A DNA stretch of 64,000 bases from Coriobacteriaceae bacterium (GCA_025993015.1 DAJPFV010000001.1:1608668-1672667); one strand, 5' to 3'. Shown: positions 44,098 through 54,857, numbered from the stretch's first letter. Notes: generated by a model from the sequence alone, not told the origin. Program-made: numbers and translations.

Positions 44098-45294
44098 ATG
44101 AGTCAGGCAAGGCAAGATGGCATCACGCTCAAGCAGTGGCTCCCGCTTATCGGGCTCACCTGCTGCGCGTTCGTGTTCAACACGTCGGAGTTCATGCCCA
44201 TCGGTCTGCTGACCGACATCGCCGCATCGTTTTCGCTCACCGAGGCCCAAGCTGGCATCATGATCTCGGTCTATGCCTGGGGCGTCATGCTGCTGTCGTT
44301 GCCGCTCATGGTGTTCGCTTCGCGCTTTGAGTTCAAGCGGATGCTGCTCGGCGTGCTTGCCGTGTTCTCGCTGGGCCAGTTCCTGTCCGCCGTGGCGCCG
44401 ACCTATCCCATTCTGGTCTGCGCACGCCTGGTGGTTGCCTGCGCGCACGCCGTGTTCTGGTCGGTCGCCTCGATCATGGCGTCGCGTCTGGTTGACACGC
44501 GCCATGGGGCGCTCGCCATCAGCATGATCGCCACGGGCTCTTCCATCGCACAGATCTTCGGCCTGCCGCTCGGCCGCGCCATTGGCCTGGCCGTGGGCTG
44601 GCGTATGACGTTTGCCGTGGTTGGGGCCCTCTCTGCCGCTGCGGTGGTGTACCAGGCCACGGTGTTCCCCACCATGCCGGCGGGCGAGCGTTTTACGCTC
44701 AAGCAGCTGCCCGAGCTGCTCAAGAGCCCGTTCCTCATCGCTCTCTACGCCGTTACGGTGTTCATGGCGACCGGCTATTACGCGGGCTATAGCTATATCG
44801 AGCCTTTCCTGGCCCAGGTCGCGCATGTCGACGCAAGCGCTATCACTATGACGTTGACGGCGTTCGGCTGCTCCGGCCTGGTGGGCAGTTGGCTGTTCGG
44901 CCGCCTGTTCGACGGGCACCGTTTTCCGTTCCTTGCGATCACGCTCTCCGGAGTGCCGGTCGCCTTGCTGCTTATGGGATCTGTCGCGTCATCGCTCGCG
45001 GCGGTGCTTGCCGTCTGCGCGCTATGGGGCTGCTGCTCCACGGCCTTTAACGTGGCGTTTCAGGCCGAGCTCATCAAGTACACGCCGGTGGATTCGTCGG
45101 CCGTCGCCATGTCGATTTTCTCGGGCCTGTTTAACCTCGGTATTGGCACGGGTACCGCGATCGGCGGAGCCGTGGTTTCGGGTCCCGGTATCGCCTTGAT
45201 CGGCTACGCGGGCGGTGCGATCGCTGCCGTGGGCGTCATCCTCGCTATCACGGTGATGTTCCCGGCCATTCGTCGCGCAAAGCCTGTCGCCTAA
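44098..45294 (+). CDS. MFS transporter (sugar/drug efflux-like, 12 TM)
   Basis: 398 aa polytopic protein with the MFS loop motif (LVDTRHGALAISM...) and 12 predicted helices by eye. Confidence 0.8.
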   Translation: MSQARQDGITLKQWLPLIGLTCCAFVFNTSEFMPIGLLTDIAASFSLTEAQAGIMISVYAWGVMLLSLPLMVFASRFEFKRMLLGVLAVFSLGQFLSAVAPTYPILVCARLVVACAHAVFWSVASIMASRLVDTRHGALAISMIATGSSIAQIFGLPLGRAIGLAVGWRMTFAVVGALSAAAVVYQATVFPTMPAGERFTLKQLPELLKSPFLIALYAVTVFMATGYYAGYSYIEPFLAQVAHVDASAITMTLTAFGCSGLVGSWLFGRLFDGHRFPFLAITLSGVPVALLLMGSVASSLAAVLAVCALWGCCSTAFNVAFQAELIKYTPVDSSAVAMSIFSGLFNLGIGTGTAIGGAVVSGPGIALIGYAGGAIAAVGVILAITVMFPAIRRAKPVA

Positions 45295-45309
45295 CCACGT
45301 CCCCTCATC
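45238..45309 (+). repeat. Left copy of the 72-bp direct repeat flanking the island (functional 3' end of the MFS gene plus 15 nt)
   Basis: Aligns without gaps to 52704-52775 with 9 mismatches by my hand alignment. Confidence 0.85.
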
Positions 45310-45376
45310 AGTTGCGGTGAAATACGGACTGCTGGGCCCAATAAACCCGGCAAACAGTCCGCATTTCACCGCAACT
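45310..45376. repeat. 67-nt palindromic element, copy C
   Basis: agttgcggtgaaatacggactg ... cagtccgcatttcaccgcaact. Confidence 0.85.
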
Positions 45377-45440
45377 TAGAAAGGGACTGGGGTAGCTAAT
45401 TTGGGACGGGGCTTTTTTAGCTACCTCGCTGAGCATACGT

Positions 45441-45490
45441 AAAAGAGGCCGAGGCCGCTCCGGTGTGTGCTGGAGTGGCCTCGGTTTTGT
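45441..45490 (-). terminator. Long hairpin terminator at the 3' end of the island operon (bidirectional)
   Basis: aaaagaggccgaggccgctccgg ... ctggagtggcctcggtttt. Confidence 0.6.
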
Positions 45491-45507
45491 GTCTGCGTAT
45501 GATCGAC

Positions 45508-45876
45508 CTAGAGCTCGTCTTGGGGGACGACAGCCGTAAGTTGCTCGTTCTCAAATACCGCAGCAAGTCCGTGTTCGGGGTCAAAGCGATAGTTGCACAT
45601 GAGCGCTGCTTTGCGAGCATCATCGCTCCGAAGTACCACGATACTGGTCGGAATAACGTATCTAAAGATGTTTGTAATGGGGCCCTCGATCTGATCGCCG
45701 TCTCTTTCGAGACAATAATCTTCGATCGCTTCCTTGCTGTCCTCAACGGTATCCCAGCTTGCAAGCAGGGCGCCCTTTGCTTCCTTTTGAATGTCGAGGA
45801 CGCCTTGGTCCGAGTCACACTCGTAATAGACGGGGAGCGAGAAATCCCTGCCCCACAGATTCATGCCGTTAGTCAT
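45508..45876 (-). CDS. Small acidic protein, putative cognate immunity protein of the upstream nuclease
   Basis: The call rests on position only: it lies immediately 3' of the toxin gene and overlaps it (ATGACTAA). 122-126 aa, with no signal peptide or TM helix. The maximal ORF starts with TTG at 45888. Confidence 0.4.
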   Translation of the reverse strand: MTNGMNLWGRDFSLPVYYECDSDQGVLDIQKEAKGALLASWDTVEDSKEAIEDYCLERDGDQIEGPITNIFRYVIPTSIVVLRSDDARKAALMCNYRFDPEHGLAAVFENEQLTAVVPQDEL

Positions 45877-46558
45877 CGAAGCCGCCAATCTGATTCAGTA
45901 TGTTTTTGATTTCGCTTACGCCGCCGAGATGGCTGCACACCTTGTGAACTTCGGTCGGAACAAGAGAGCACGTCTTCATATCATTGTGTTCGTGCCAGGT
46001 GTACTCATTTACCTCGCGCCATTTCTTGACATCCTGGTGCGTCCAATCATCTTTGCCATCGCGTTGCTCAAGGTTCCAAGCTTTTGCGCATTCAGTGTCT
46101 GCCTTTTCATAGTTGCCGACAATGCGTTCGCCGTTCTCGCCCATCTGCGAAAGCCTATGCTGGCTCATGCCTTGTATGGTTACTTTCGCTTCAGAGATAG
46201 GGTTGAAGTCAGGAATTCCATCCTTGTAATTGATGCCCTCAAGACCTTTGTTTCGAAGAATCTCGCGGACCCTATCGGCTGTGGGAATAAACATCGATTC
46301 CCCTCGGTCACCCGACCATTTTCCGTTTGGATTCTCGATGCTCGGTGTACGGTCCAGCCTCTCCTTATAGCTCGAAGGATAATCGCACGATTCCACCGAG
46401 GGTCTAATCAATTTGTCGGGATCGATGGATTCGTTACGGCCGGCATTTTTAACCTCTGCCTTGGTTTCCTTTGATTCGGGGCCAATGAGTTTATCAGGAT
46501 TGAACCCAAGTTTATCGCCTAGCTTGGCCACGCCGCCTTTCATTTGCTTGAACTCCAT
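45869..46558 (-). CDS. HNH/EndoVII-fold nuclease toxin (WHH-like polymorphic-toxin domain) without a recognisable trafficking domain
   Basis: C-terminal KWSGDRGESMFIP...GIPDFNP...YTWHEHNDMKTCSLVPTEVHKVCSHLGG resembles the WHH/GH-E class of toxin nucleases. TAATG overlap with the ATPase gene. Confidence 0.6.
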   Translation of the reverse strand: MEFKQMKGGVAKLGDKLGFNPDKLIGPESKETKAEVKNAGRNESIDPDKLIRPSVESCDYPSSYKERLDRTPSIENPNGKWSGDRGESMFIPTADRVREILRNKGLEGINYKDGIPDFNPISEAKVTIQGMSQHRLSQMGENGERIVGNYEKADTECAKAWNLEQRDGKDDWTHQDVKKWREVNEYTWHEHNDMKTCSLVPTEVHKVCSHLGGVSEIKNILNQIGGFDD

Positions 46559-49500
46559 TAGCTCACCTCGCTATTCTCGTTCCAGTTGTGCCAATCGGAA
46601 TATGCTTGGGTATCTTGCATTTGCAGACACAAGACATCGGTCATGATGCCCTGGATGATGACCTGCCTGGTGCGGCTGTCGATATCGCGGTCGATTGAGG
46701 ACCTGAGTGCCGCGTCCGCCGCCATTGTCCATTGTTCGGCTTCATCGCTGCACTCGCGTTCGTCCTCGACCGCTTTGGCAACGTTGGGAAACAGTGTGCT
46801 CATTATGGGTCCCAGCTTGGTCATGCGCGGTTCGGCGGGTGGGTTTTGAACGGTGCGCAGGATCTTGACCTTTGTAGACGCGTCGATATGGAGGCGATCG
46901 AGCCGTTCGCGAATGCTGTGCAGCTCCGTCTTGGTTCCGATGCTGATTCCGTAGGCCAGCATGCGCGCTACGGCAAGGGCATCATCGCTCTGGTTGCTTG
47001 CGACATCGTCGATGGGGCGGCTGTATGCAAAGTGCGCGCCATCCTCTGCTTTGGCGATCTTGCAGAGCACCGGCTCAACCCAATCGTTTTGGTAAATGGC
47101 CGCAACGCCTTTAGGCAGGCGTGCCAGTTCGACGATCTGTTGGTCGTTGAGGTTGGCGGCGCGACCGGCGAGCTCGCGGTCCGAAAGATCGGGCAGGCGA
47201 TGGATGATCTTGGTATTTGTGTTGCGAATGGCTGCCATATCGAGAAGTCCGGGCGCCTGGTCGGCGATGATGAAGCCTTCGCCGTATGTACGCATCTCGG
47301 CGATGGCATTTGAGATCATCTCGACGCTCTTGCCTGTCAGGTCGCCGCTTTCCGAGCCTTGGCTGCTCGACGATCGCTTAAGCAGGTTGTGCGCCTCTTC
47401 AAGCACGGTCAGATGGCGAAGTGGCTGGTTCATGCCCTTTTTCTCGGCCATGCGATGTTCTTGAAGTTTGAGTACAAGAAGACCCATGAGTAGGGATTTT
47501 GTTTCGGCGGAGCCAATGCGCGATAGGTCGATGACTGTGTTGGCGTCAAAAAGCACGGTGGCGTCGACTTCGTTCGACGAAAGCATCATGCCGTTGAGCC
47601 CGTTGGTGAGTGAATTGAGACGTGTGAGCAGCGAACCCTTGTAGGCGCCCTTATTTTCGGCGTCGTACTCGCTGGAATCGAGAATCTCGCGGACGTTGCG
47701 GGCAACATCTGCAAAGCAAGGAAAGAGATCGGCTCCATATGGGTTATCAGAAGCGGCAAGGTCCCATCCACAGTCTTCGTATGACCTGGCGACGGCGTCT
47801 TTAAGGACGGCGGGCATGGCGGCGTACATGGGCCAGCAGACATTAAAGATCTCAGCGAGTCGGTCGAGGTGTTCCAGCACATGGATGCCGGACGGGAAGC
47901 TAAAAGGATTGATACGCAGGAGCGGCGTGAATTCTGGATTGGTTCCAAAGACGTTTACGTCTTCGCGGGCTCCATACACGTCCTTGTATTCGCCCTTGGC
48001 AGGTTCAATGACAAGGAAGTTGACTCGCTGATCGAGCGCTTGGTCGAGGATGCGACAGACGGTATTGGTCTTTCCTGCGCCGGTGCTGCCCGTAACAAAG
48101 GTGTGCGAGGCAAGTGAGTCCTTTGACAGGAACGTTTCGATGCGTTCCTCGCGATGCATATGGAAAACCTTGCCTATGCAAAGGCCCTGCTGAGGCTGCG
48201 TACCATCGAACGTAGAGACGTTGCGCCCAAAAGAAGCGCATTCGATAACGGGCAACCCTGGGACGGACTTCTTGGGAAAGTTGAGCGAATAGGCCAGCTC
48301 CTTGCCCGAAAGGGCAGTCGTTGCATCGACCGTTGCCGGATAGACCGAAAAGCTCGGATGTTGATCGAGCAGGGCGGGGGAGAGGGCAAAAGCAGGATGG
48401 CGCAAATCGCGAAGGTAGGAGCAGATTGCCGTGGCGTCGGCGCTTTGCTCTCCAAGGTCTCCGCGCCAGAGGTTTACTGCAGCCTGAGACATATAGGATT
48501 CTTTGCCCTGGGTGAGGGCGAGATAGGTGTGGGCAACGTTATTCGCGACGTTGTGGTCTTCTGCTAGCACGTAGGCGCAAAAGTCCCACATGCCGAGTGC
48601 CGAGGCAAGGTCGTAGCGCTTCATTTGCAACTCAAGTATTTCGAGCGCGTGTTGGATGGAGTAATTCTTGAACGTCTGCGTGATGCCTTCGTCGGCGCCG
48701 ATGGTAGCGGTGACCGTGCTTGAGCGTGCGAACGATCCGCCAAAGTTGGCACCTAGATTTACTGCCTGCGAAACACCGGAAGTCACGGAAGCTCCCTTAG
48801 AGACAGCCTTGCCAACACCGCTGGTGACGGCTTTGCCGAGCGTGTTGGATATGGCCTTGCCGGTAGATGAGCTTGTACCTGTTGCCGTGGACGTGGAGTG
48901 CGACGAACCCTCCGTGTGACTTGCGGATACGCCTAAGTCAACGCCTCCGCTCGAGGACTCATTCCTGCCGTCGGTGACCGTATCCGTGATGCTTTCGGTC
49001 GATGTGGACGAGTCGGTTACGCTCTCGTTGCTCGATTCCGAGGTCGACTCGTTTGTCGAGTCCGTTTCGTTGTAGTTTTGAGCAACAGCCTGATTATTTC
49101 CCACCTGTCTGCCGGCGCTCACACCTGCATTGATGCCAATCGTCGCGGACGATCCGATGGAGTCGTTCTGGTGATGGGTGTAGTTGGTCGTCCATGAGGC
49201 ATAAGGCGTTAGCAGTGAGTGGAGTTCGGCGAGGCGGAGTTTGCGCGATTCGATATCATGGATCGGGGTTGCGAGCAGCACGATAGTGTAGTCTTCGCTC
49301 GGCCTACCGGGCACAATGCCGTCGAGAACCTTCTCAATAGTTTGCGTGACGAACTTCTCGTTCTTTTCGGCTGGAATATTCGAAACGGCGGCAACCGAAG
49401 ACGGGCGTCGATTGTCTAGACACGGAATGGGACCGCGGTTGGCGGGCCCCACTTCGGAACCGGGGAAGTTGCCCCTCAAGGCATCCGACATGCGCCGGGA

Positions 49501-49989
49501 AAAATTATCGGCGTCGATGTTGTCGCGAGCATTGTCGCTATTGACGACTGCGAGAAATACCTCGGTGCTTGCGCTGGTTCGATTAAAGATCAGCGCAATG
49601 TTGCATTCTTCGTCAGAAAGAACGTCGTACACATTTACAAGCTTCTCGAGACTGTCCTCGTTGGGATCGACGATCCACTTCGTGATATTCATGAAGCGGA
49701 TGTTGTTGTCGGCGTTAAAGCCCATGGGGTATTCAATGGAGGGGTCAATCGGCGCGTAAACATTTCGCAGCTGCGGCAGATAGGCGTTGTGAAGCTCAAC
49801 GGCGGCAGTTGCCAAGAGCCGATTGGTGAGCTCGACAGCTTGCTCGTCTGCCGGATTCGGCTTTTCTGACAAGTATGCTGTTCGCTTTTGGTCGACCTCA
49901 TCGAGCTGGGAGCTGCTGAGTACCGAGACGGTTGCGACCGCGTTGCCGGCTTTATCGGCAGCGCGCATAATCGCGTTTTTGATGCCCAT
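46558..49989 (-). CDS. Large HerA/FtsK-superfamily P-loop ATPase with an unknown N-terminal region of about 590 aa and a Ser/Thr/Gly low-complexity insert
   Basis: HAS-barrel-like CIGKVFHMHREERIETF, followed by Walker A FVTGSTGAGKTNT, Walker B LTVLEEAHNLL, and IIADQAPGLLD...IIHRLPD. Confidence 0.75.
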   Translation of the reverse strand: MGIKNAIMRAADKAGNAVATVSVLSSSQLDEVDQKRTAYLSEKPNPADEQAVELTNRLLATAAVELHNAYLPQLRNVYAPIDPSIEYPMGFNADNNIRFMNITKWIVDPNEDSLEKLVNVYDVLSDEECNIALIFNRTSASTEVFLAVVNSDNARDNIDADNFSRRMSDALRGNFPGSEVGPANRGPIPCLDNRRPSSVAAVSNIPAEKNEKFVTQTIEKVLDGIVPGRPSEDYTIVLLATPIHDIESRKLRLAELHSLLTPYASWTTNYTHHQNDSIGSSATIGINAGVSAGRQVGNNQAVAQNYNETDSTNESTSESSNESVTDSSTSTESITDTVTDGRNESSSGGVDLGVSASHTEGSSHSTSTATGTSSSTGKAISNTLGKAVTSGVGKAVSKGASVTSGVSQAVNLGANFGGSFARSSTVTATIGADEGITQTFKNYSIQHALEILELQMKRYDLASALGMWDFCAYVLAEDHNVANNVAHTYLALTQGKESYMSQAAVNLWRGDLGEQSADATAICSYLRDLRHPAFALSPALLDQHPSFSVYPATVDATTALSGKELAYSLNFPKKSVPGLPVIECASFGRNVSTFDGTQPQQGLCIGKVFHMHREERIETFLSKDSLASHTFVTGSTGAGKTNTVCRILDQALDQRVNFLVIEPAKGEYKDVYGAREDVNVFGTNPEFTPLLRINPFSFPSGIHVLEHLDRLAEIFNVCWPMYAAMPAVLKDAVARSYEDCGWDLAASDNPYGADLFPCFADVARNVREILDSSEYDAENKGAYKGSLLTRLNSLTNGLNGMMLSSNEVDATVLFDANTVIDLSRIGSAETKSLLMGLLVLKLQEHRMAEKKGMNQPLRHLTVLEEAHNLLKRSSSSQGSESGDLTGKSVEMISNAIAEMRTYGEGFIIADQAPGLLDMAAIRNTNTKIIHRLPDLSDRELAGRAANLNDQQIVELARLPKGVAAIYQNDWVEPVLCKIAKAEDGAHFAYSRPIDDVASNQSDDALAVARMLAYGISIGTKTELHSIRERLDRLHIDASTKVKILRTVQNPPAEPRMTKLGPIMSTLFPNVAKAVEDERECSDEAEQWTMAADAALRSSIDRDIDSRTRQVIIQGIMTDVLCLQMQDTQAYSDWHNWNENSEVS

Positions 49990-49998
49990 ACGATCAGC

Positions 49999-52581
49999 CT
50001 ATTCCTTCCAATTAATGACGCGCGCAATGTATTCTTTTCGATTGTTGAGTGTCTCGAGTTTTGCCTCGAGAGCGTTGATCTCCGCGGTTTGCCTGTTGAT
50101 GTCTTCGACATGGCCATGGAGCACCGGGTTGTAGTCGGTGATATTGCTCGTAATTTGGCCAAGCAGCTCGTTGAGCCATTCGGTAAAGCCGTAGGTATGC
50201 TCGCGCTCTATTTCGGCGCGTGCTTCGCAGAAACACCGTGAGATTTCGCGGTTGAATTTATCTTCGACTTTCCTAAGCAAAAGCTTGTCGGATTTAAAGA
50301 TGACACGGTCCATGAGCTTCAGTTCGGTAAAGTCTGCCTTGCTGAAAATGGGGCCCTTTGTCTTATCGAGCGCGAGGCCACGATATTTAAGAATGATATC
50401 GCCGACCTCTTGGCGCTTTTCTTCGGAAAGAGGATTGTCACTGCTGGTAGCGATGCGATAGAGGGCATCGCGGCTATGCTCCGCACAATCCTTCCAATAG
50501 CTTTGCGACAGCTCATCGATGGTCTGAGCTATTTGCTCGGTACATTCGTCATAGTGATTGATGACCTCGTTAAAGAGTTGGTCAGCGGCATCTTTGTCGG
50601 CTGTTCTTTCGGCAGCCTTTGCATCGGATCTTTTGTGAAATGCATCGGTTATGTCATCGCAAAGACCCTTGCCAACGTCCGCAAGGCCACCCGTTGGACA
50701 AGGTTCACTATCCTTTTGCGCATTGACCTGGCTTCCCTTTATGGAGTCGCCGAGCCTATTGAAGAAGTTGGGTGCAATCGAATCAAATGCTTTCGCTGCC
50801 GCGATTGAGCGTTTTGAGTACTCGAGCCCCTCTCGCTTTTCCTCGGTAATGGCGTTTTGGCGTGCCTGGAGCGCATCAAGACTGGTCTCCCATTGTTTGG
50901 CCGAAACCCTCTTGTCGATTGTTTCCCTATAGCTTGCCGAAGCATCCTCCTTTGCATGCTCCTTGCAGGCTTCGAGCTGATCGATAAGAGCGCGCTTATC
51001 CTCTTCGAGTTCGGCTTCTCGCTGCGCTTTCTTTTGTTCAAGGTCGGTTTTCTTGTCGGCAATCTCTTCTTCGGTTATGCCGACAATTTCTTGCAGAAGT
51101 GATTCCGACCTGCTGCATTTGTTATATGCGGAGTACCGTTCGGCAAACAGGCGTATTTCGTTCTCGATGCAAAAGAGTCCGCTATTGGCAAGAAGGAGGT
51201 CCTTGCAAGCCTCGGATTCGCGATTGGTTCTGCGCGAGATCTGTCCCGGAAGGATATCGTAACGGTAGAGCGTTTTGTAGAAGCGGCTTGTCGGGTCGGT
51301 GTATTTACGCTGCTGGTCTTCGAATCTTTCGGCATAGTTGTCGCTTATAAACTCGCCGGAGTTCTTTGAGCCTAGGCCGAGGATGGAAGAAACAAAGTAG
51401 ATACCTTGACCATAGAGCCTGGACGGAATGAACTGGCGCATGATGTCCGAGACTCGTTCGTCGTCAAACCCGCCTTTGGGAAGGTCGGCGGAATCCGCCT
51501 TGTTGACTACGATCATGGCAAAGCGTTCATCGATTGCGGGGATCTCCTTTATTTCGTTGGAGAGGTTCTCGTTGTCTTTCGTGTCGAGTGTGGTGTACTC
51601 GGCAACGAAAATGGGAAGACCGTTCGAGAGGCCTTCCATGGCTTGTTTGAGCACTCGGGCGTGATCGACGTTGGAGGCAGAGTTTGACCCCGGGGTGTCA
51701 AAGATGACAAACTCCCTGTCGTGAGGCCATGGATCGGTATCGCTAAAGGGCACTTCGATTCTGATCAGATCGGAGATGGTCCGGTCGTCTTCATCGGCAT
51801 GGTATGAGTTAAGAACCTTGAGGGCGCTGTTCATATGAGAGGCCATGCCGGGCATGGAGTCGGCGACTTTGGCCGCGATCTTGTCGTATAGGGGCTCCCC
51901 CACAAGCTCTTTGTTTTCCATGAGGCCATCAAGATCAAAGCGCAGCAAGAACCGCCTGCTGCCACAGGAGAATTGAACCATCGCGCGATCTCGGTCTTTT
52001 GAACGTTTGATTTGAAATATGCGGGCCGTTACAGGCTCGTCGCCGCTGGGAAGGATCTCCATGCCAATGAGGGCGTTGATGAGCGTCGATTTGCCTGCAC
52101 TATAGTTGCCGAGCACACACAGCGGGATGATGTCGCTCGAGACATCGGTGAACTTCCTAATTTGCTCAGAGACTTTTGTTCGCTCGGAGACTGCTTCGTC
52201 TACAAGCCCCTGGATTTCTCTGAAGACTTCGACAATTTCCGGCAAGACGTCACGGGCGTTTGATAGATAGCGCTCGTCTCGTATGACCTCGTATGTATTG
52301 GCACGTGGCCCTTCGGTGCAGATGGCGAGCAACTCCTGCCATTCGTCGTCTGCTCCTTCAAAATGCAATTCAATTCTGTCGCCACCACCAAACTCTTTGG
52401 CGAGGATGTCGATGATCTCTTCGGCCTTAAAGGGGAAGAAACCATTAACGATCTTCGTGCTATGGAGCGCGCTATTGGGATTTGTAGATGTCGTTATTTC
52501 TTGCCAGCCGTTATCCCATCGGAAGAACCGGACAATTTCTTGATATGGATTGCTGACGATCTTGATTTTAATGTCTGCCAT
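49999..52581 (-). CDS. Dynamin-family large GTPase (bacterial dynamin-like protein) with an N-terminal extra domain and a long helical C-terminus
   Basis: G1 GNYSAGKST, G3 IFDTPGS, G4 VVNKAD. The C-terminal roughly 400 aa are rich in heptad-like charged helices. There is a 9-nt gap to the ATPase gene. Confidence 0.75.
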   Translation of the reverse strand: MADIKIKIVSNPYQEIVRFFRWDNGWQEITTSTNPNSALHSTKIVNGFFPFKAEEIIDILAKEFGGGDRIELHFEGADDEWQELLAICTEGPRANTYEVIRDERYLSNARDVLPEIVEVFREIQGLVDEAVSERTKVSEQIRKFTDVSSDIIPLCVLGNYSAGKSTLINALIGMEILPSGDEPVTARIFQIKRSKDRDRAMVQFSCGSRRFLLRFDLDGLMENKELVGEPLYDKIAAKVADSMPGMASHMNSALKVLNSYHADEDDRTISDLIRIEVPFSDTDPWPHDREFVIFDTPGSNSASNVDHARVLKQAMEGLSNGLPIFVAEYTTLDTKDNENLSNEIKEIPAIDERFAMIVVNKADSADLPKGGFDDERVSDIMRQFIPSRLYGQGIYFVSSILGLGSKNSGEFISDNYAERFEDQQRKYTDPTSRFYKTLYRYDILPGQISRRTNRESEACKDLLLANSGLFCIENEIRLFAERYSAYNKCSRSESLLQEIVGITEEEIADKKTDLEQKKAQREAELEEDKRALIDQLEACKEHAKEDASASYRETIDKRVSAKQWETSLDALQARQNAITEEKREGLEYSKRSIAAAKAFDSIAPNFFNRLGDSIKGSQVNAQKDSEPCPTGGLADVGKGLCDDITDAFHKRSDAKAAERTADKDAADQLFNEVINHYDECTEQIAQTIDELSQSYWKDCAEHSRDALYRIATSSDNPLSEEKRQEVGDIILKYRGLALDKTKGPIFSKADFTELKLMDRVIFKSDKLLLRKVEDKFNREISRCFCEARAEIEREHTYGFTEWLNELLGQITSNITDYNPVLHGHVEDINRQTAEINALEAKLETLNNRKEYIARVINWKE

Positions 52582-52703
52582 CGTTCAACTACCTTTAGTA
52601 GATCAGGTGCGGGAATATGCCGCCTTTATCATAGGGTAGCCGCCCGTGCGGACACCCCTCTATTCGCTCGGCGGCATCTCGGCAGTACCATTTATTTGGC
52701 AAG

Positions 52704-52760
52704 ATCCTCGCCATCGCCGTAATGTTCCCGGCCATACGCCGCGCAAAGCCCGTCGCCTAA
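52704..52760 (+). pseudogene. Orphan duplicate of the last 18 codons plus stop of the MFS gene (right island boundary)
   Basis: Translates to ILAIAVMFPAIRRAKPVA*, compared with ILAITVMFPAIRRAKPVA* at the real gene end. There is no upstream reading frame. Confidence 0.8.
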
Positions 52761-52775
52761 TCACGTCCCCTTATC

Positions 52776-52842
52776 AGTTGCGGTGGAATAGTTCCTGTTT
52801 AAGGCCTCTGAAGGCCCAGGCAGGAACTATTCCACCGCAACT
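52776..52842. repeat. 67-nt palindromic element, copy D
   Basis: agttgcggtggaatagttcctg ... caggaactattccaccgcaact. Confidence 0.85.
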
Positions 52843-52913
52843 TATTTTGGGGGAGAGGATACAAGCCGGGCATACAATGGATGTCGTTGTGTTGAGCTTA
52901 TCGGGAGGTTGCT

Positions 52914-54290
52914 ATGTGGGCATACGAGACGACGTTCTATCAGATCTATCCGCTGGGCTTTTGCGGGGCTCCGCGCGAGAACGTCGCGCCCGTTGCCGAG
53001 GATGAGCTCGCACAGGCCGCCGACGCCGCGTCCAACCCCGATGCTCCCATCATGAAAATCGCCCAATGGGCCGATTACCTGCAGGAGCTCGGCGTTGGCG
53101 CTGTGCTGATCAACCCTCTGCTTGAGTCCGATAGCCATGGCTATGACACGCGCAGCCTGCGCCACGTTGACCGTCGTCTGGGCTCCGATGCCGATTTTGC
53201 GGCCGTATGCGAGACGCTCCACGCCCACGGTATCCGCGTGGTGCTCGATGCGGTCTTCAACCACGTCGGCCGCGGCTTTTGGGCCTTCCGCGATGTACAG
53301 GAGCGCAAGTGGGATTCTCCCTACAAGGACTGGTTCCACATTAACTTCGATGGCGACTCCTGCTATGGCGACGGTTTTTGGTACGAGGGCTGGGAGGGCC
53401 ATTTTGAGCTCGTCAAGCTCAACCTGCAAAACCCCGCCGTGGTCGATTATCTGCTCGAGTCCGTGCGAACCTGGGTCGATGTTTTTGGCGTCGACGGCCT
53501 GCGCTTGGACGTCGCCTACATGCTCGACCGCGATTTCATGCGTCGTTTGCATAGCTTTGCCCGTGAGCTCAAGCCCGGCTTTGTGCTCATTGGCGAGACG
53601 CTCCACGGCGACTACAACCAGATCGTCAACGACGAGATGCTCGACTCCTGCACCAACTACGAGTGCTACAAGGGCCTGTACTCCAGCTTTAACTCGGTCA
53701 ACATGTTCGAGATCGCCCATTCGCTGCACCGCCAGTTTGGCGGCGACCCCTGGTGCATCTACCGCGGCAAGCACCTGCTGTCGTTTGTCGACAACCACGA
53801 TGTGCCGCGCCTGGCAAGTATCCTCACCGACAAGTCGTGCCTGCGTCCCTCCTATGGCATGCTCTTTGGCATGCCGGGCATCCCGTGCGTCTACTATGGC
53901 AGCGAGTGGGGAATTGCTGGCGAAAAGGGCGGCCCCGATGGCGACTGGGCGCTGCGCCCTGCGCTCGATGAGCCTGCGCCCAACGAGCTGACGGCGTTCA
54001 TCACGCAACTCGCACACCTTCGCTCGGCCGACGACGCGGCTGCCCGTGCTCTCAACTACGGTGCCTATCGCAACGTGGTGATCCAGAACAAGCAGCTGCT
54101 GTTCGAGCGCGCCTGTGACGGCGCGACGGTACTCGTGGCGGTGAACGCCGTGGGCGAGCCTTACACCTTTGGCGCCGGCGAACTCAACGGCTCCTTCGTC
54201 GACCTGCTTGCCGACGATGCTCCCACGGTCGAGCTGACGGGCACCCTTGAACTTGCACCCTACGAGGTGCGCTATCTGTTGAGAGCCTAG
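52914..54290 (+). CDS. GH13 alpha-amylase-family glycoside hydrolase
   Basis: Conserved regions DAVFNHVG, GLRLDVAYM, LIGETLHGDY, FVDNHDVPR. Confidence 0.88.
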   Translation: MWAYETTFYQIYPLGFCGAPRENVAPVAEDELAQAADAASNPDAPIMKIAQWADYLQELGVGAVLINPLLESDSHGYDTRSLRHVDRRLGSDADFAAVCETLHAHGIRVVLDAVFNHVGRGFWAFRDVQERKWDSPYKDWFHINFDGDSCYGDGFWYEGWEGHFELVKLNLQNPAVVDYLLESVRTWVDVFGVDGLRLDVAYMLDRDFMRRLHSFARELKPGFVLIGETLHGDYNQIVNDEMLDSCTNYECYKGLYSSFNSVNMFEIAHSLHRQFGGDPWCIYRGKHLLSFVDNHDVPRLASILTDKSCLRPSYGMLFGMPGIPCVYYGSEWGIAGEKGGPDGDWALRPALDEPAPNELTAFITQLAHLRSADDAAARALNYGAYRNVVIQNKQLLFERACDGATVLVAVNAVGEPYTFGAGELNGSFVDLLADDAPTVELTGTLELAPYEVRYLLRA

Positions 54291-54293
54291 CCC

Positions 54294-54857
54294 ATGGCCG
54301 TGTCTGACGAGGACTATCAACATATTGAGCATGGGTTTGAGCCTGTGTTCGACCAGCGCTCGCGCGTTTTGGTGCTGGGGTCGTTTCCCTCGGTGCTCTC
54401 GCGTGCCAATGCCTTCTACTATGGCAATCCGCAGAACCGCTTTTGGCGTGTGATGGCCGCGTGCCTCGGTGTATCCGTGCCGTCCAACGAGGGCGATCCT
54501 TTGGCAAACGGTGAGCCCGCGACGCTCGATGCCTCCATTGCCGCCAAGCGGGCCATGCTGCTGAACGGCAGCGTGGCCCTGTGGGATGTGATCGAGAGCT
54601 GCGACATTAAGGGCTCGAGCGACGCCAGCATCAAAAACGTCGTTCCGGCACATATTGAGCGCATTACGGGCAATGCGCCTATTGAGCTGGTGGTGTGTAA
54701 CGGAGGTACGGCGGGGCGCCTCTATAAGCGCTATCTAAAGGAGCGGACAGGCCTGCCCGCTGTCGTATTGCCGTCAACTAGTCCCGCTAACGCGGCTTGG
54801 CGTCTGGAACGTCTTGTTGAGCGTTGGCGCGAAGCCGTTGACTGGATCGCACGGTAG
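54294..54857 (+). CDS. DNA-deoxyinosine (hypoxanthine) glycosylase, UDG superfamily
   Basis: VLVLGSFPSVLS...YYGNPQNRFW...LPSTSPANA motifs. Confidence 0.7.
   Translation: MAVSDEDYQHIEHGFEPVFDQRSRVLVLGSFPSVLSRANAFYYGNPQNRFWRVMAACLGVSVPSNEGDPLANGEPATLDASIAAKRAMLLNGSVALWDVIESCDIKGSSDASIKNVVPAHIERITGNAPIELVVCNGGTAGRLYKRYLKERTGLPAVVLPSTSPANAAWRLERLVERWREAVDWIAR

Follow-up and report, generated by a model that had tools for sequence, protein, structure and literature searches.

What does a large HerA-type ATPase move, and with which partners, when its N-terminal half of some 600 residues carries no motif of a known family and is interrupted by a long Ser/Thr/Gly-rich insert? The question is raised by a minus-strand gene in a 64,000-nucleotide (nt) stretch of a Coriobacteriaceae bacterium genome (GCA_025993015.1 DAJPFV010000001.1:1608668-1672667), the whole of which was analyzed; it is called the window below, and positions are counted from its first letter. 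The original prediction, made from the sequence alone, had placed an open reading frame (ORF) at 46558-49989 with GSTGAGKT at nt 48067-48090 and the motifs LEEAH and IIADQ (the last at amino acids (aa) 907-911 of the ATPase), and all of these were recovered there. It had been made without the context that proved decisive, a dynamin-like partner and a polymorphic toxin/immunity cassette. We found that the ATPase is the conserved motor of a widespread and apparently undescribed four-gene polymorphic-toxin module, with all genes on the minus strand in the order dynamin-like GTPase, ATPase, toxin and immunity protein.

49999..52581, minus strand: dynamin-like GTPase, 860 aa, first gene of the module (Pfam Dynamin_N, 4.7e-18)
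46558..49989, minus strand: ATPase, 1143 aa, ATG start (ORF; Pfam DUF87)
45869..46558, minus strand: toxin, 229 aa (Pfam WHH 3.8e-13, Colicin-DNase 5.3e-13)
45508..45888, minus strand: immunity protein (DUF6985), 126 aa (Pfam DUF6985, 1.2e-7)

The genes are tightly packed: the ATPase starts 9 nt past the stop codon of the dynamin gene, its own stop codon overlaps the ATG of the toxin gene by 1 nt, and the immunity gene could start at TTG (45888) or at ATG (45876 or 45864). The motifs of the dynamin-like GTPase, read from its sequence, are intact (G1 GNYSAGKST, G3 DTPG and G4 NKAD).

The same arrangement recurred in 80 loci, drawn from contigs of one genome per species. Their hosts were Collinsella, Bifidobacterium ruminantium, Slackia, Olsenella, several Streptococcus, Lachnospiraceae, Ruminococcus, Carnobacterium, Treponema and one Thermoguttaceae genome, in the phyla Actinomycetota, Bacillota, Spirochaetota and Planctomycetota. 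The module was also found in Streptococcus sanguinis, S. salivarius, S. parasanguinis and S. suis, and it is common in human gut and oral commensals and opportunists. A dynamin-like homologue lay directly upstream of the ATPase gene in 75/80 loci; three dynamin/septin-like GTPase genes (1/80), other genes (2/80) or a contig end that was too close (2/80) accounted for the other cases. Directly downstream was a gene for ~170-330 aa, often overlapping the ATPase stop codon, followed by a gene for ~120-145 aa. Among 59 non-redundant proteins encoded directly downstream, 23 were WHH/colicin-DNase, 10 Endonuclea_NS_2 and 4 LHH; Ntox15, HNH and a DUF6782 metallopeptidase were single cases, and the remaining proteins matched no Pfam family and showed HNH-like signatures on reading. 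The 39 next genes were assigned by Pfam to DUF6985 (11), SMI1_KNR4/SUKH-1 (9), SUKH_6 (6), SUKH_5 (5), YezG-like (5), PoNi (3) and Tdi1 (1), where one member can match several related SUKH models. SUKH, YezG, PoNi and Tdi1 are immunity families of delivered interbacterial toxins.

More distant relatives were found on Bacillus, Lactococcus and E. coli plasmids, with 36-38% identity to the window ATPase, and, at still greater distance, in the metagenome loci L085-L088. They keep the order of the module and have further parts: a second dynamin gene in most of them, and a gene for a small tail-anchored membrane protein in which the motif W-x-x-E/D-Y...NFS-x-ER is conserved. No homologue of this accessory protein was found in the window module, and the WYL regulator that often heads the distant operons (below) is likewise absent from the Collinsella island. 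E. coli was rejected as a common host, as the ATPase gene version of plasmid pTW10590_133 was present in only 1/5426 complete genomes by near-identity DNA search.

In the window toxin, the leader is disordered, and the nuclease domain behind it, at aa 110-218, is of the WHH/colicin-DNase (HNH/EndoVII) kind. The toxins of the family have no common globular N-terminal domain and carry tandem short motifs in the disordered leader instead. The type I motif, F[DN]PDK[RL][IV], is present in two or three copies, the type II motif reads [FY]xxIKPE...FW, and further variants are PKEIGE repeats and DxPDxWSxPESD in three copies. Second toxin/immunity pairs of a locus share the leader motif type of that locus. 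The window carries two type I copies, and the ATPase ends in a helical tail that evolves fast (the ratio of nonsynonymous to synonymous substitution rates, dN/dS, is given with the predicted helices of AlphaFold2 (AF2)):

46484..46504, minus strand: leader motif copy 1, FNPDKLI, toxin aa 19-25 (sequence)
46406..46426, minus strand: leader motif copy 2, IDPDKLI, toxin aa 45-51 (sequence)
46561..46995, minus strand: C-terminal helical tail of the ATPase, aa 999-1143 (AF2 helices; dN/dS 0.208; pairing of tail class with motif class)

When the ATPases were clustered by their last 90 residues, one cluster held 30 type I and 0 type II cases, and the other 16 type II and 0 type I cases. Because tail class matches leader-motif class, we infer that the C-terminal tail is a toxin-recognition module. 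A shared leader joined to a variable toxin domain (WHH, LHH, Endonuclea_NS_2, Ntox15, HNH, metallopeptidase or unassigned) and a downstream cognate immunity gene of a known family (DUF6985 in the window) are marks of polymorphic toxins, and both are present here. We class the module with the polymorphic toxin systems that are linked to FtsK-HerA pumps.

In loci L013-L080, Gly-Gly and a few further residues often form the C-terminus of ATPases and of toxins from unrelated families (...GGFDD, ...GGEFDE, ...NEGGVY). These ends are probably the in-frame GGAGG ribosome-binding site of the coupled next gene and not a protein motif; in the window, GGAGG is out of frame, within ...NSEVS-stop.

The C-terminal half of the ATPase contains the engine, with the following features:

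47050..48192, minus strand: HAS-barrel and RecA-like ATPase core, aa 600-980, FtsK-HerA-VirB4 class (Pfam DUF87, Foldseek, PDB sequence matches)
48067..48090, minus strand: Walker A, GSTGAGKT, aa 634-641 (sequence; G634, G637, G639 and K640 invariant in alignment A2)
47389..47409, minus strand: Walker B region, TVLEEAH, aa 861-867 (T861, E864, E865, A866 and H867 invariant in alignment A2)

The only Pfam match on the ATPase was DUF87/HerA-central (PF01935; aa 605-832, 43.6 bits against a cut-off of 23.2), which places the protein in the FtsK-HerA superfamily. Searches of PDB sequences with the ATPase returned HerA-type ATPases only, all aligned to the C-terminal half. Furthermore, Foldseek with the full model gave HerA (4d2i, E 1e-14), SIR2-HerA, DUF4297-HerA, DndH-C and the VirB4 C-domain (4ag5, TMt 0.76) as closest structures, with 8wld and 8ziq as the best matches besides 4d2i, and full-length R388 TrwK/VirB4 aligned to the model across ~1100 columns. 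The assignment of the part from about residue 600 onwards to a HAS-barrel plus HerA/FtsK ATPase was thus borne out. The HerA equivalogs of NCBIfam gave 23-36 bits, far under their cut-offs of 800-970. No segment of the window ATPase reached a Kyte-Doolittle value of 1.5 and no transmembrane helices were predicted; no WXG or FHA Pfam matches were found in the window proteins. The original prediction that this is not the architecture of canonical HerA, VirB4 or EssC was also supported: the missed HerA cut-offs and the extra N-terminal half of 600 aa set the protein apart from HerA, and the single Walker A motif from EssC, with a less clear picture for VirB4, to which a weak fold match was seen (below).

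To characterize the N-terminal half, aa 1-600 were compared with 1.84 billion cluster representatives, and 836 family clusters (at 50% identity) were found at E <= 1e-3 and 541 at E <= 1e-10. The N-terminal half is almost always fused to the ATPase across this family, whose full-length members have 919-1356 aa and one Walker A each, at about residue 420-850. AF2 models built on family alignments showed confident folds at aa 60-270 and 440-1000 (predicted local distance difference test (pLDDT) mostly >85), and the conserved positions of the N-terminal half, GNFPGS (aa 173-178), Q216, K220, R458, W468, Y473, G495 and W508, fall into two lobes on either side of the insert:

49180..49788, minus strand: N-domain lobe A, aa 68-270, alpha/beta, with GNFPGS, Q216 and K220 (AF2 pLDDT >90, alignments A2/A5)
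48205..48684, minus strand: N-domain lobe B, aa 436-595, with R458, W468, Y473, G495 and W508 (AF2 pLDDT >90, invariant columns)
48685..49179, minus strand: insert, aa 271-435, dipeptide-periodic S/T/G/N-x arm, likely a hairpin with its tip at ~aa 350 (period-2 z, column pattern, dN/dS, indels)

The N-terminal half forms an alpha/beta domain of two lobes that is conserved across a large family. No Pfam or NCBIfam domain was found in the N-terminal 600 aa, and a profile of 30 N-terminal halves against PDB sequences gave noise only and no relative, in agreement with the earlier description of this half as unknown. In the structural comparison that had been proposed, Foldseek with the N-terminal half alone gave no PDB match below E = 1e-3, and the best folds were TrwK/VirB4 (7o41_B; E = 2e-3, probability 0.98, template-modelling (TM) score 0.17-0.20) and the ESX-3 translocon chain 6umm_A, followed by generic alpha+beta sandwiches. 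The resemblance to a VirB4 N-domain, which had been named as a possible outcome, is therefore weak and at fold level only (TM ~0.2). Since the sequence searches were empty and the fold matches weak, the domain is unknown by sequence and at best distantly VirB4-N-like in fold. In BFVD, the N-terminal half weakly resembled in fold (E 1e-5 to 4e-4, TM ~0.2) uncharacterised proteins of the Bacillus phages Slash, G (gp155/gp156) and JL, and these weak matches suggest that phages may encode relatives of it.

The insert had been described as an extreme low-complexity Ser/Thr/Gly stretch at residues ~305-430 (nt ~48700-49077); this stretch is real and falls inside aa 271-435. At aa 268-436, S and T make up 35% of the residues, G 13% and N 8%, with no proline and a net charge of -8. 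The insert is bounded by the same pair of conserved strands in 65/65 aligned representatives, with conserved stems on both sides, a length of 30-253 aa (median 113) and nearly no proline. Thus its position is kept and it is never absent in the homologues, while its length and sequence vary; because the position is conserved, the insert is not a throw-away linker. Its columns alternate strictly, with S, T, G or N at every second position and a mixture of hydrophobic and charged residues in between, and in the window one register is nearly all N, T, S, G and A over 174 residues without a frame slip. The period-2 power of the S/T/G/N pattern reached z = 15.9 in the window against shuffles of the same residues (family median 11.5; z >3 in 98% of homologues), compared with z = -1.3 for period 4 and z = -1.6 for period 3.6. 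Because period 2 dominates, the apparent G-x-x-x-G spacing is a harmonic of the dipeptide repeat and not a helical zipper, and the 'GKAV' repeats belong to the same dipeptide-periodic, beta-type pattern. A helical glycine zipper, an ALPS-type amphipathic helix and a G-x-x-x-G periodicity were ruled out for the window insert by this spectral analysis, and an origin of the low complexity from DNA tandem repeats was rejected, as no repeats were found under the insert.

The earlier suggestion of a glycine-zipper or membrane-active segment consequently failed for the window protein, in which hydropathy is also low and to which the Gly-zipper Pfam models did not match, and survived in part for the family. 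On family average, hydrophobicity is highest and S/T content lowest in the middle of the insert (Kyte-Doolittle +0.29 versus ~-0.7 elsewhere), and its two arms mirror each other (Wilcoxon p = 0.0017). A Gly-rich segment with Kyte-Doolittle >= 1.5 was present in the insert of 8/65 homologues, and the hydrophobic insert segments of the homologues P0211, P0227, P0267 and P0199 gave sub-threshold Gly-zipper/C19orf12 Pfam matches. In addition, all Collinsella indels in the whole ATPase lie at ~aa 350 (~48940); they are Gly-rich (SLGVGAGIGPGASAGVYGGG), are carried by L004, L005, L006, L008 and L012, and amount to net +20, +24 and +10 residues, all even. Among six equal-length Collinsella alleles (Nei-Gojobori method), dN/dS was 0.094 for the insert, 0.081 for lobe A, 0.018 for lobe B (the lowest of the protein), 0.067 for the ATPase core and 0.208 for the C-terminal tail, the fastest-evolving part. 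The simplest structural reading of this pattern would be a beta arm of two long strands whose tip seeks the membrane. With its dipeptide periodicity and even-length tip indels, the insert illustrates how a structural element under strong selection can look like a 'low-complexity' segment.

What the motor acts on can be proposed from this context. We tentatively favour a toxin-handling, probably toxin-exporting function. The ATPase ring would dock the toxin leader via its C-terminal tail, strip the toxin off the immunity protein and export it from the cytoplasm by threading; the N-domain and the hairpin arm, whose tip is hydrophobic and Gly-rich in many homologues, would face or enter the membrane, and the dynamin-like GTPase would hold, remodel or reseal the membrane at the export site. 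The DNase would thereby reach competing bacteria, and the immunity protein would shield the producer. There is a Gram-positive precedent in HerA-FtsK pumps that export nuclease toxins with N-terminal signals (PMC3113570). Two further links were counted for export: a weak one to secretion, since the best PDB folds of the modelled N-terminal half belong to secretion machines (R388 VirB4 and an ESX-3 chain), and one to the membrane, the tail-anchored protein of the distant loci. A stronger version, in which the module is a self-contained protein-delivery system of mainly Gram-positive commensals, with an ATPase ring that has its own beta-hairpin conduit, a GTPase-managed membrane and leader-addressed toxins, appears unlikely. 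The conduit would then be formed by S/T/G/N-lined arms of ~80 residues per limb in the window protein, up to ~25 nm long if extended and ending in a membrane-seeking tip, and the leader motifs would be read by the ATPase tail; the chance of a categorically new delivery machine is modest.

Several observations weigh against export, and some of them point to an intracellular anti-phage/anti-plasmid abortive-infection module, which is the main rival and a real possibility, if a doubtful one. The Collinsella module encodes no integral-membrane channel, signal peptide or cell-wall-spanning component, and no outer-membrane component was seen with the diderm homologues (E. coli plasmid, Treponema), the latter counting also for the intracellular reading. 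The window insert does not exceed a Kyte-Doolittle value of 0.58 over any 19 aa, and the window allele, naturally 'tip-less', does not have the Gly-rich tip of its sister strains. Across aa 273-434 AF2 drew long hairpins without confidence (pLDDT ~30), so the hairpin rests on the sequence pattern and not on a confident model, and the match of tail class with motif class could come partly from shared ancestry. Moreover, a HerA-type ATPase with a nuclease is a known and recurrent intracellular defence theme, and the closest solved structures include SIR2-HerA and DUF4297-HerA. A WYL regulator heads the operon in L078, L082, L083, L085/L086 and L087/L088; genes for an AAA_21/AbiEii-like ATPase, an Mrr-type endonuclease (Mrr_cat) and HEPN-Toprim are among the neighbours (L022 10371-11633; L087 2009-3397 and 18077-19273), as are PIN genes, and the Mrr, HEPN-Toprim, AbiEii-like and WYL context is typical of anti-phage systems. 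The location of the module in a low-GC (guanine plus cytosine), strain-variable island and on plasmids, together with weak PADLOC matches of the ATPase to HerA and mad8 and of the dynamin to LeoA/LeoBC, would fit as well. As abortive infection, infection would be sensed by the GTPase and/or the ATPase, for example as a perturbed membrane or as ends of foreign DNA. The ATPase would then free or activate the nuclease by removing the immunity protein, and the DNase would destroy invader and host DNA; the insert and the tail-anchored partners would only keep the complex at the membrane, the entry site of phage DNA. Against this account count the small partners, which belong to the immunity families of delivered toxins (SUKH, YezG, PoNi and Tdi1), and the tandem toxin/immunity cassettes with a common leader, a hallmark of polymorphic toxins and not of known defence systems. 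In addition, no known defence system of PADLOC was matched by the window or the distant loci, and in known HerA defence the partner binds to the ATPase directly, without need of an immunity protein.

A colicin-like bacteriocin without a dedicated translocon would make use of the same parts differently: stress would induce the toxin-immunity complex, and the dynamin-like GTPase and the membrane-active arm of the ATPase would release it by controlled permeabilisation or lysis. The colicin-DNase/WHH fold of the toxin, its tightly coupled immunity gene and the membrane-related parts agree with this, and so do the WYL regulators, which would be compatible with stress or DNA-damage induction, as inferred from WYL regulators such as PafBC. 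However, the toxins have only ~170-330 aa and no receptor-binding or translocation domains, and neither the need for a translocase-class ATPase nor the match of tail class with leader class is explained; we regard this alternative as quite unlikely. Still less probable, and in our judgement very unlikely, is that the insert is a neutral disordered linker and the protein a plain HerA-like DNA translocase that acts together with a nuclease, like HerA and NurA in end resection. The low pLDDT of the insert, its length range and poor sequence conservation would suit a linker, and the ATPase resembles the DNA-translocating HerA and CedD. However, the dN/dS of the insert (0.094) is as low as that of the folded domains; this purifying selection, the strict period 2 across the family, and indels of even length at one point only make a neutral linker unlikely, as do the absence of proline and the conserved stems, and the polymorphic nuclease partner with its immunity protein is unlike NurA.

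Among known systems, the type VII pumps (EssC/EccC, YueA-like) are similar in that an FtsK-HerA-superfamily ATPase stands beside polymorphic nuclease toxin/immunity cassettes; the LXG/WXG toxins likewise have an N-terminal recognition region, and SUKH and YezG immunity proteins are common to both. EssC/EccC proteins have transmembrane helices, FHA/DUF domains, two to three tandem FtsK-like ATPase domains and WXG100 partners. In contrast, the window ATPase contains only one P-loop domain and neither an FHA domain nor predicted transmembrane helices, and the module lacks WXG100 and LXG domains, uses tandem short linear motifs as leader and has a dynamin-like GTPase as obligatory partner. VirB4/TrwK shares the order of an N-terminal alpha/beta domain and a C-terminal ATPase, but the N-terminal halves have no sequence similarity (TM 0.17-0.20 only), the large hairpin insert is missing from VirB4, and no other type IV secretion genes were found in the island. 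The HerA proteins of SIR2-HerA, DUF4297-HerA and archaeal HerA-NurA share the HAS-barrel, the RecA-like core and an adjacent nuclease or effector gene; however, they have ~500-700 aa without the N-terminal half of 600 aa, and their effectors come without an immunity protein and show no polymorphism with common leaders.

Dynamin-like GTPases on mobile islands or plasmids are also found in Eleos (LeoA/LeoBC) and in LeoABC of enterotoxigenic E. coli, and the two tandem dynamin genes of the distant relatives add to this likeness. Eleos is described as consisting of two genes (bioRxiv 10.1101/2022.12.12.520048). It differs from the module in having no ATPase, toxin or immunity genes, and the hidden Markov model matches are weak and partial (E 1e-5 to 1e-14): the window dynamin matched LeoBC at 7.8e-10 (no stretch above threshold, best aa 644-774) and LeoA at 5.9e-5 (aa 127-173), below what the models call for, and the dynamins of the distant loci matched LeoA/LeoBC similarly weakly. 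NCBIfam NF033849 ('ser_rich_anae_1'), a serine-rich protein family with no assigned function, resembles the ATPase in its Ser-rich stretch followed by an ATPase, and window aa 268-979 align to positions 420-1147 of the model. The window protein (111 bits) and 6/8 family representatives scored 76-111 bits, and 2/8 had no match at E <= 1e-20; as these scores are far under the cut-off of 650 bits, NF033849 is a sister family and not the family of the window protein.

No PADLOC system, NCBIfam equivalog or Pfam family spans the N-terminal half or the module, and the core proteins are annotated merely as 'ATP-binding protein' and 'dynamin family protein'. No full-text paper on a dynamin in polymorphic toxin, SUKH or HerA context was found in a search that left most subscription journals outside its scope. 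With toxin export as its function, the module would give monoderm bacteria a new mode of interbacterial antagonism and would be the first case in which a dynamin of bacteria is coupled to a translocase; as a defence system it would be new as well, with toxin/immunity cassettes serving as swappable effectors. On either reading, bacterial dynamin-like proteins gain a concrete and testable molecular partner, and the tip-less window allele would be useful for functional comparison with the tip-bearing Collinsella alleles.

The module lies in an island of Collinsella aerofaciens of ~7.4 kb (~45325-52703), with a GC content of 0.51-0.56 versus 0.59-0.62 in the flanks. C. aerofaciens 1001099B_141217_A1 (L002) is 100% identical to the window, and C. 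aerofaciens TSDC17.2-1.1 has no island between the major facilitator superfamily (MFS) transporter and alpha-amylase genes. Many near-identical ATPases are on metagenome contigs of ~7.4 kb, which fits a strain-variable island, and the empty-site joint 45324->52817 was present in the pig-gut run X2. Two direct repeats flank the island:

45238..45378, plus strand: direct repeat, left copy (3' end of the MFS gene and a hairpin), ~140 nt
52704..52844, plus strand: direct repeat, right copy, ~140 nt

No integrase is encoded in the island, which makes homologous recombination the likely route of exchange. Two further minus-strand ORFs were rejected as genes: the 603-aa ORF 52842..54653, a candidate for a fourth gene of the operon, merely shadows the alpha-amylase gene on the plus strand (52914..54290), and the 133-aa ORF 45417..45818 has no family, is R/S/T-rich and junk-like, and overlaps the real 126-aa DUF6985 gene in another frame; such long shadow ORFs are due to the high GC content. 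Consensus scans for promoters and terminators at the island ends found nothing. Gut metatranscriptome contigs spanned all four genes and not the flanks, with DNA carry-over possible in those runs, and one contig of 6.9 kb corresponded to 45407-52261.

Directly downstream of the immunity gene, a 36-nt hairpin was found at 45389-45425 (GGTAGCTAA, a 17-nt loop, TTAGCTACC). It matched several unrelated contigs of higher depth in run X2 and marked read breakpoints in X1, X2 and X3; possible readings are a dispersed repeat, a recombination element and a terminator.

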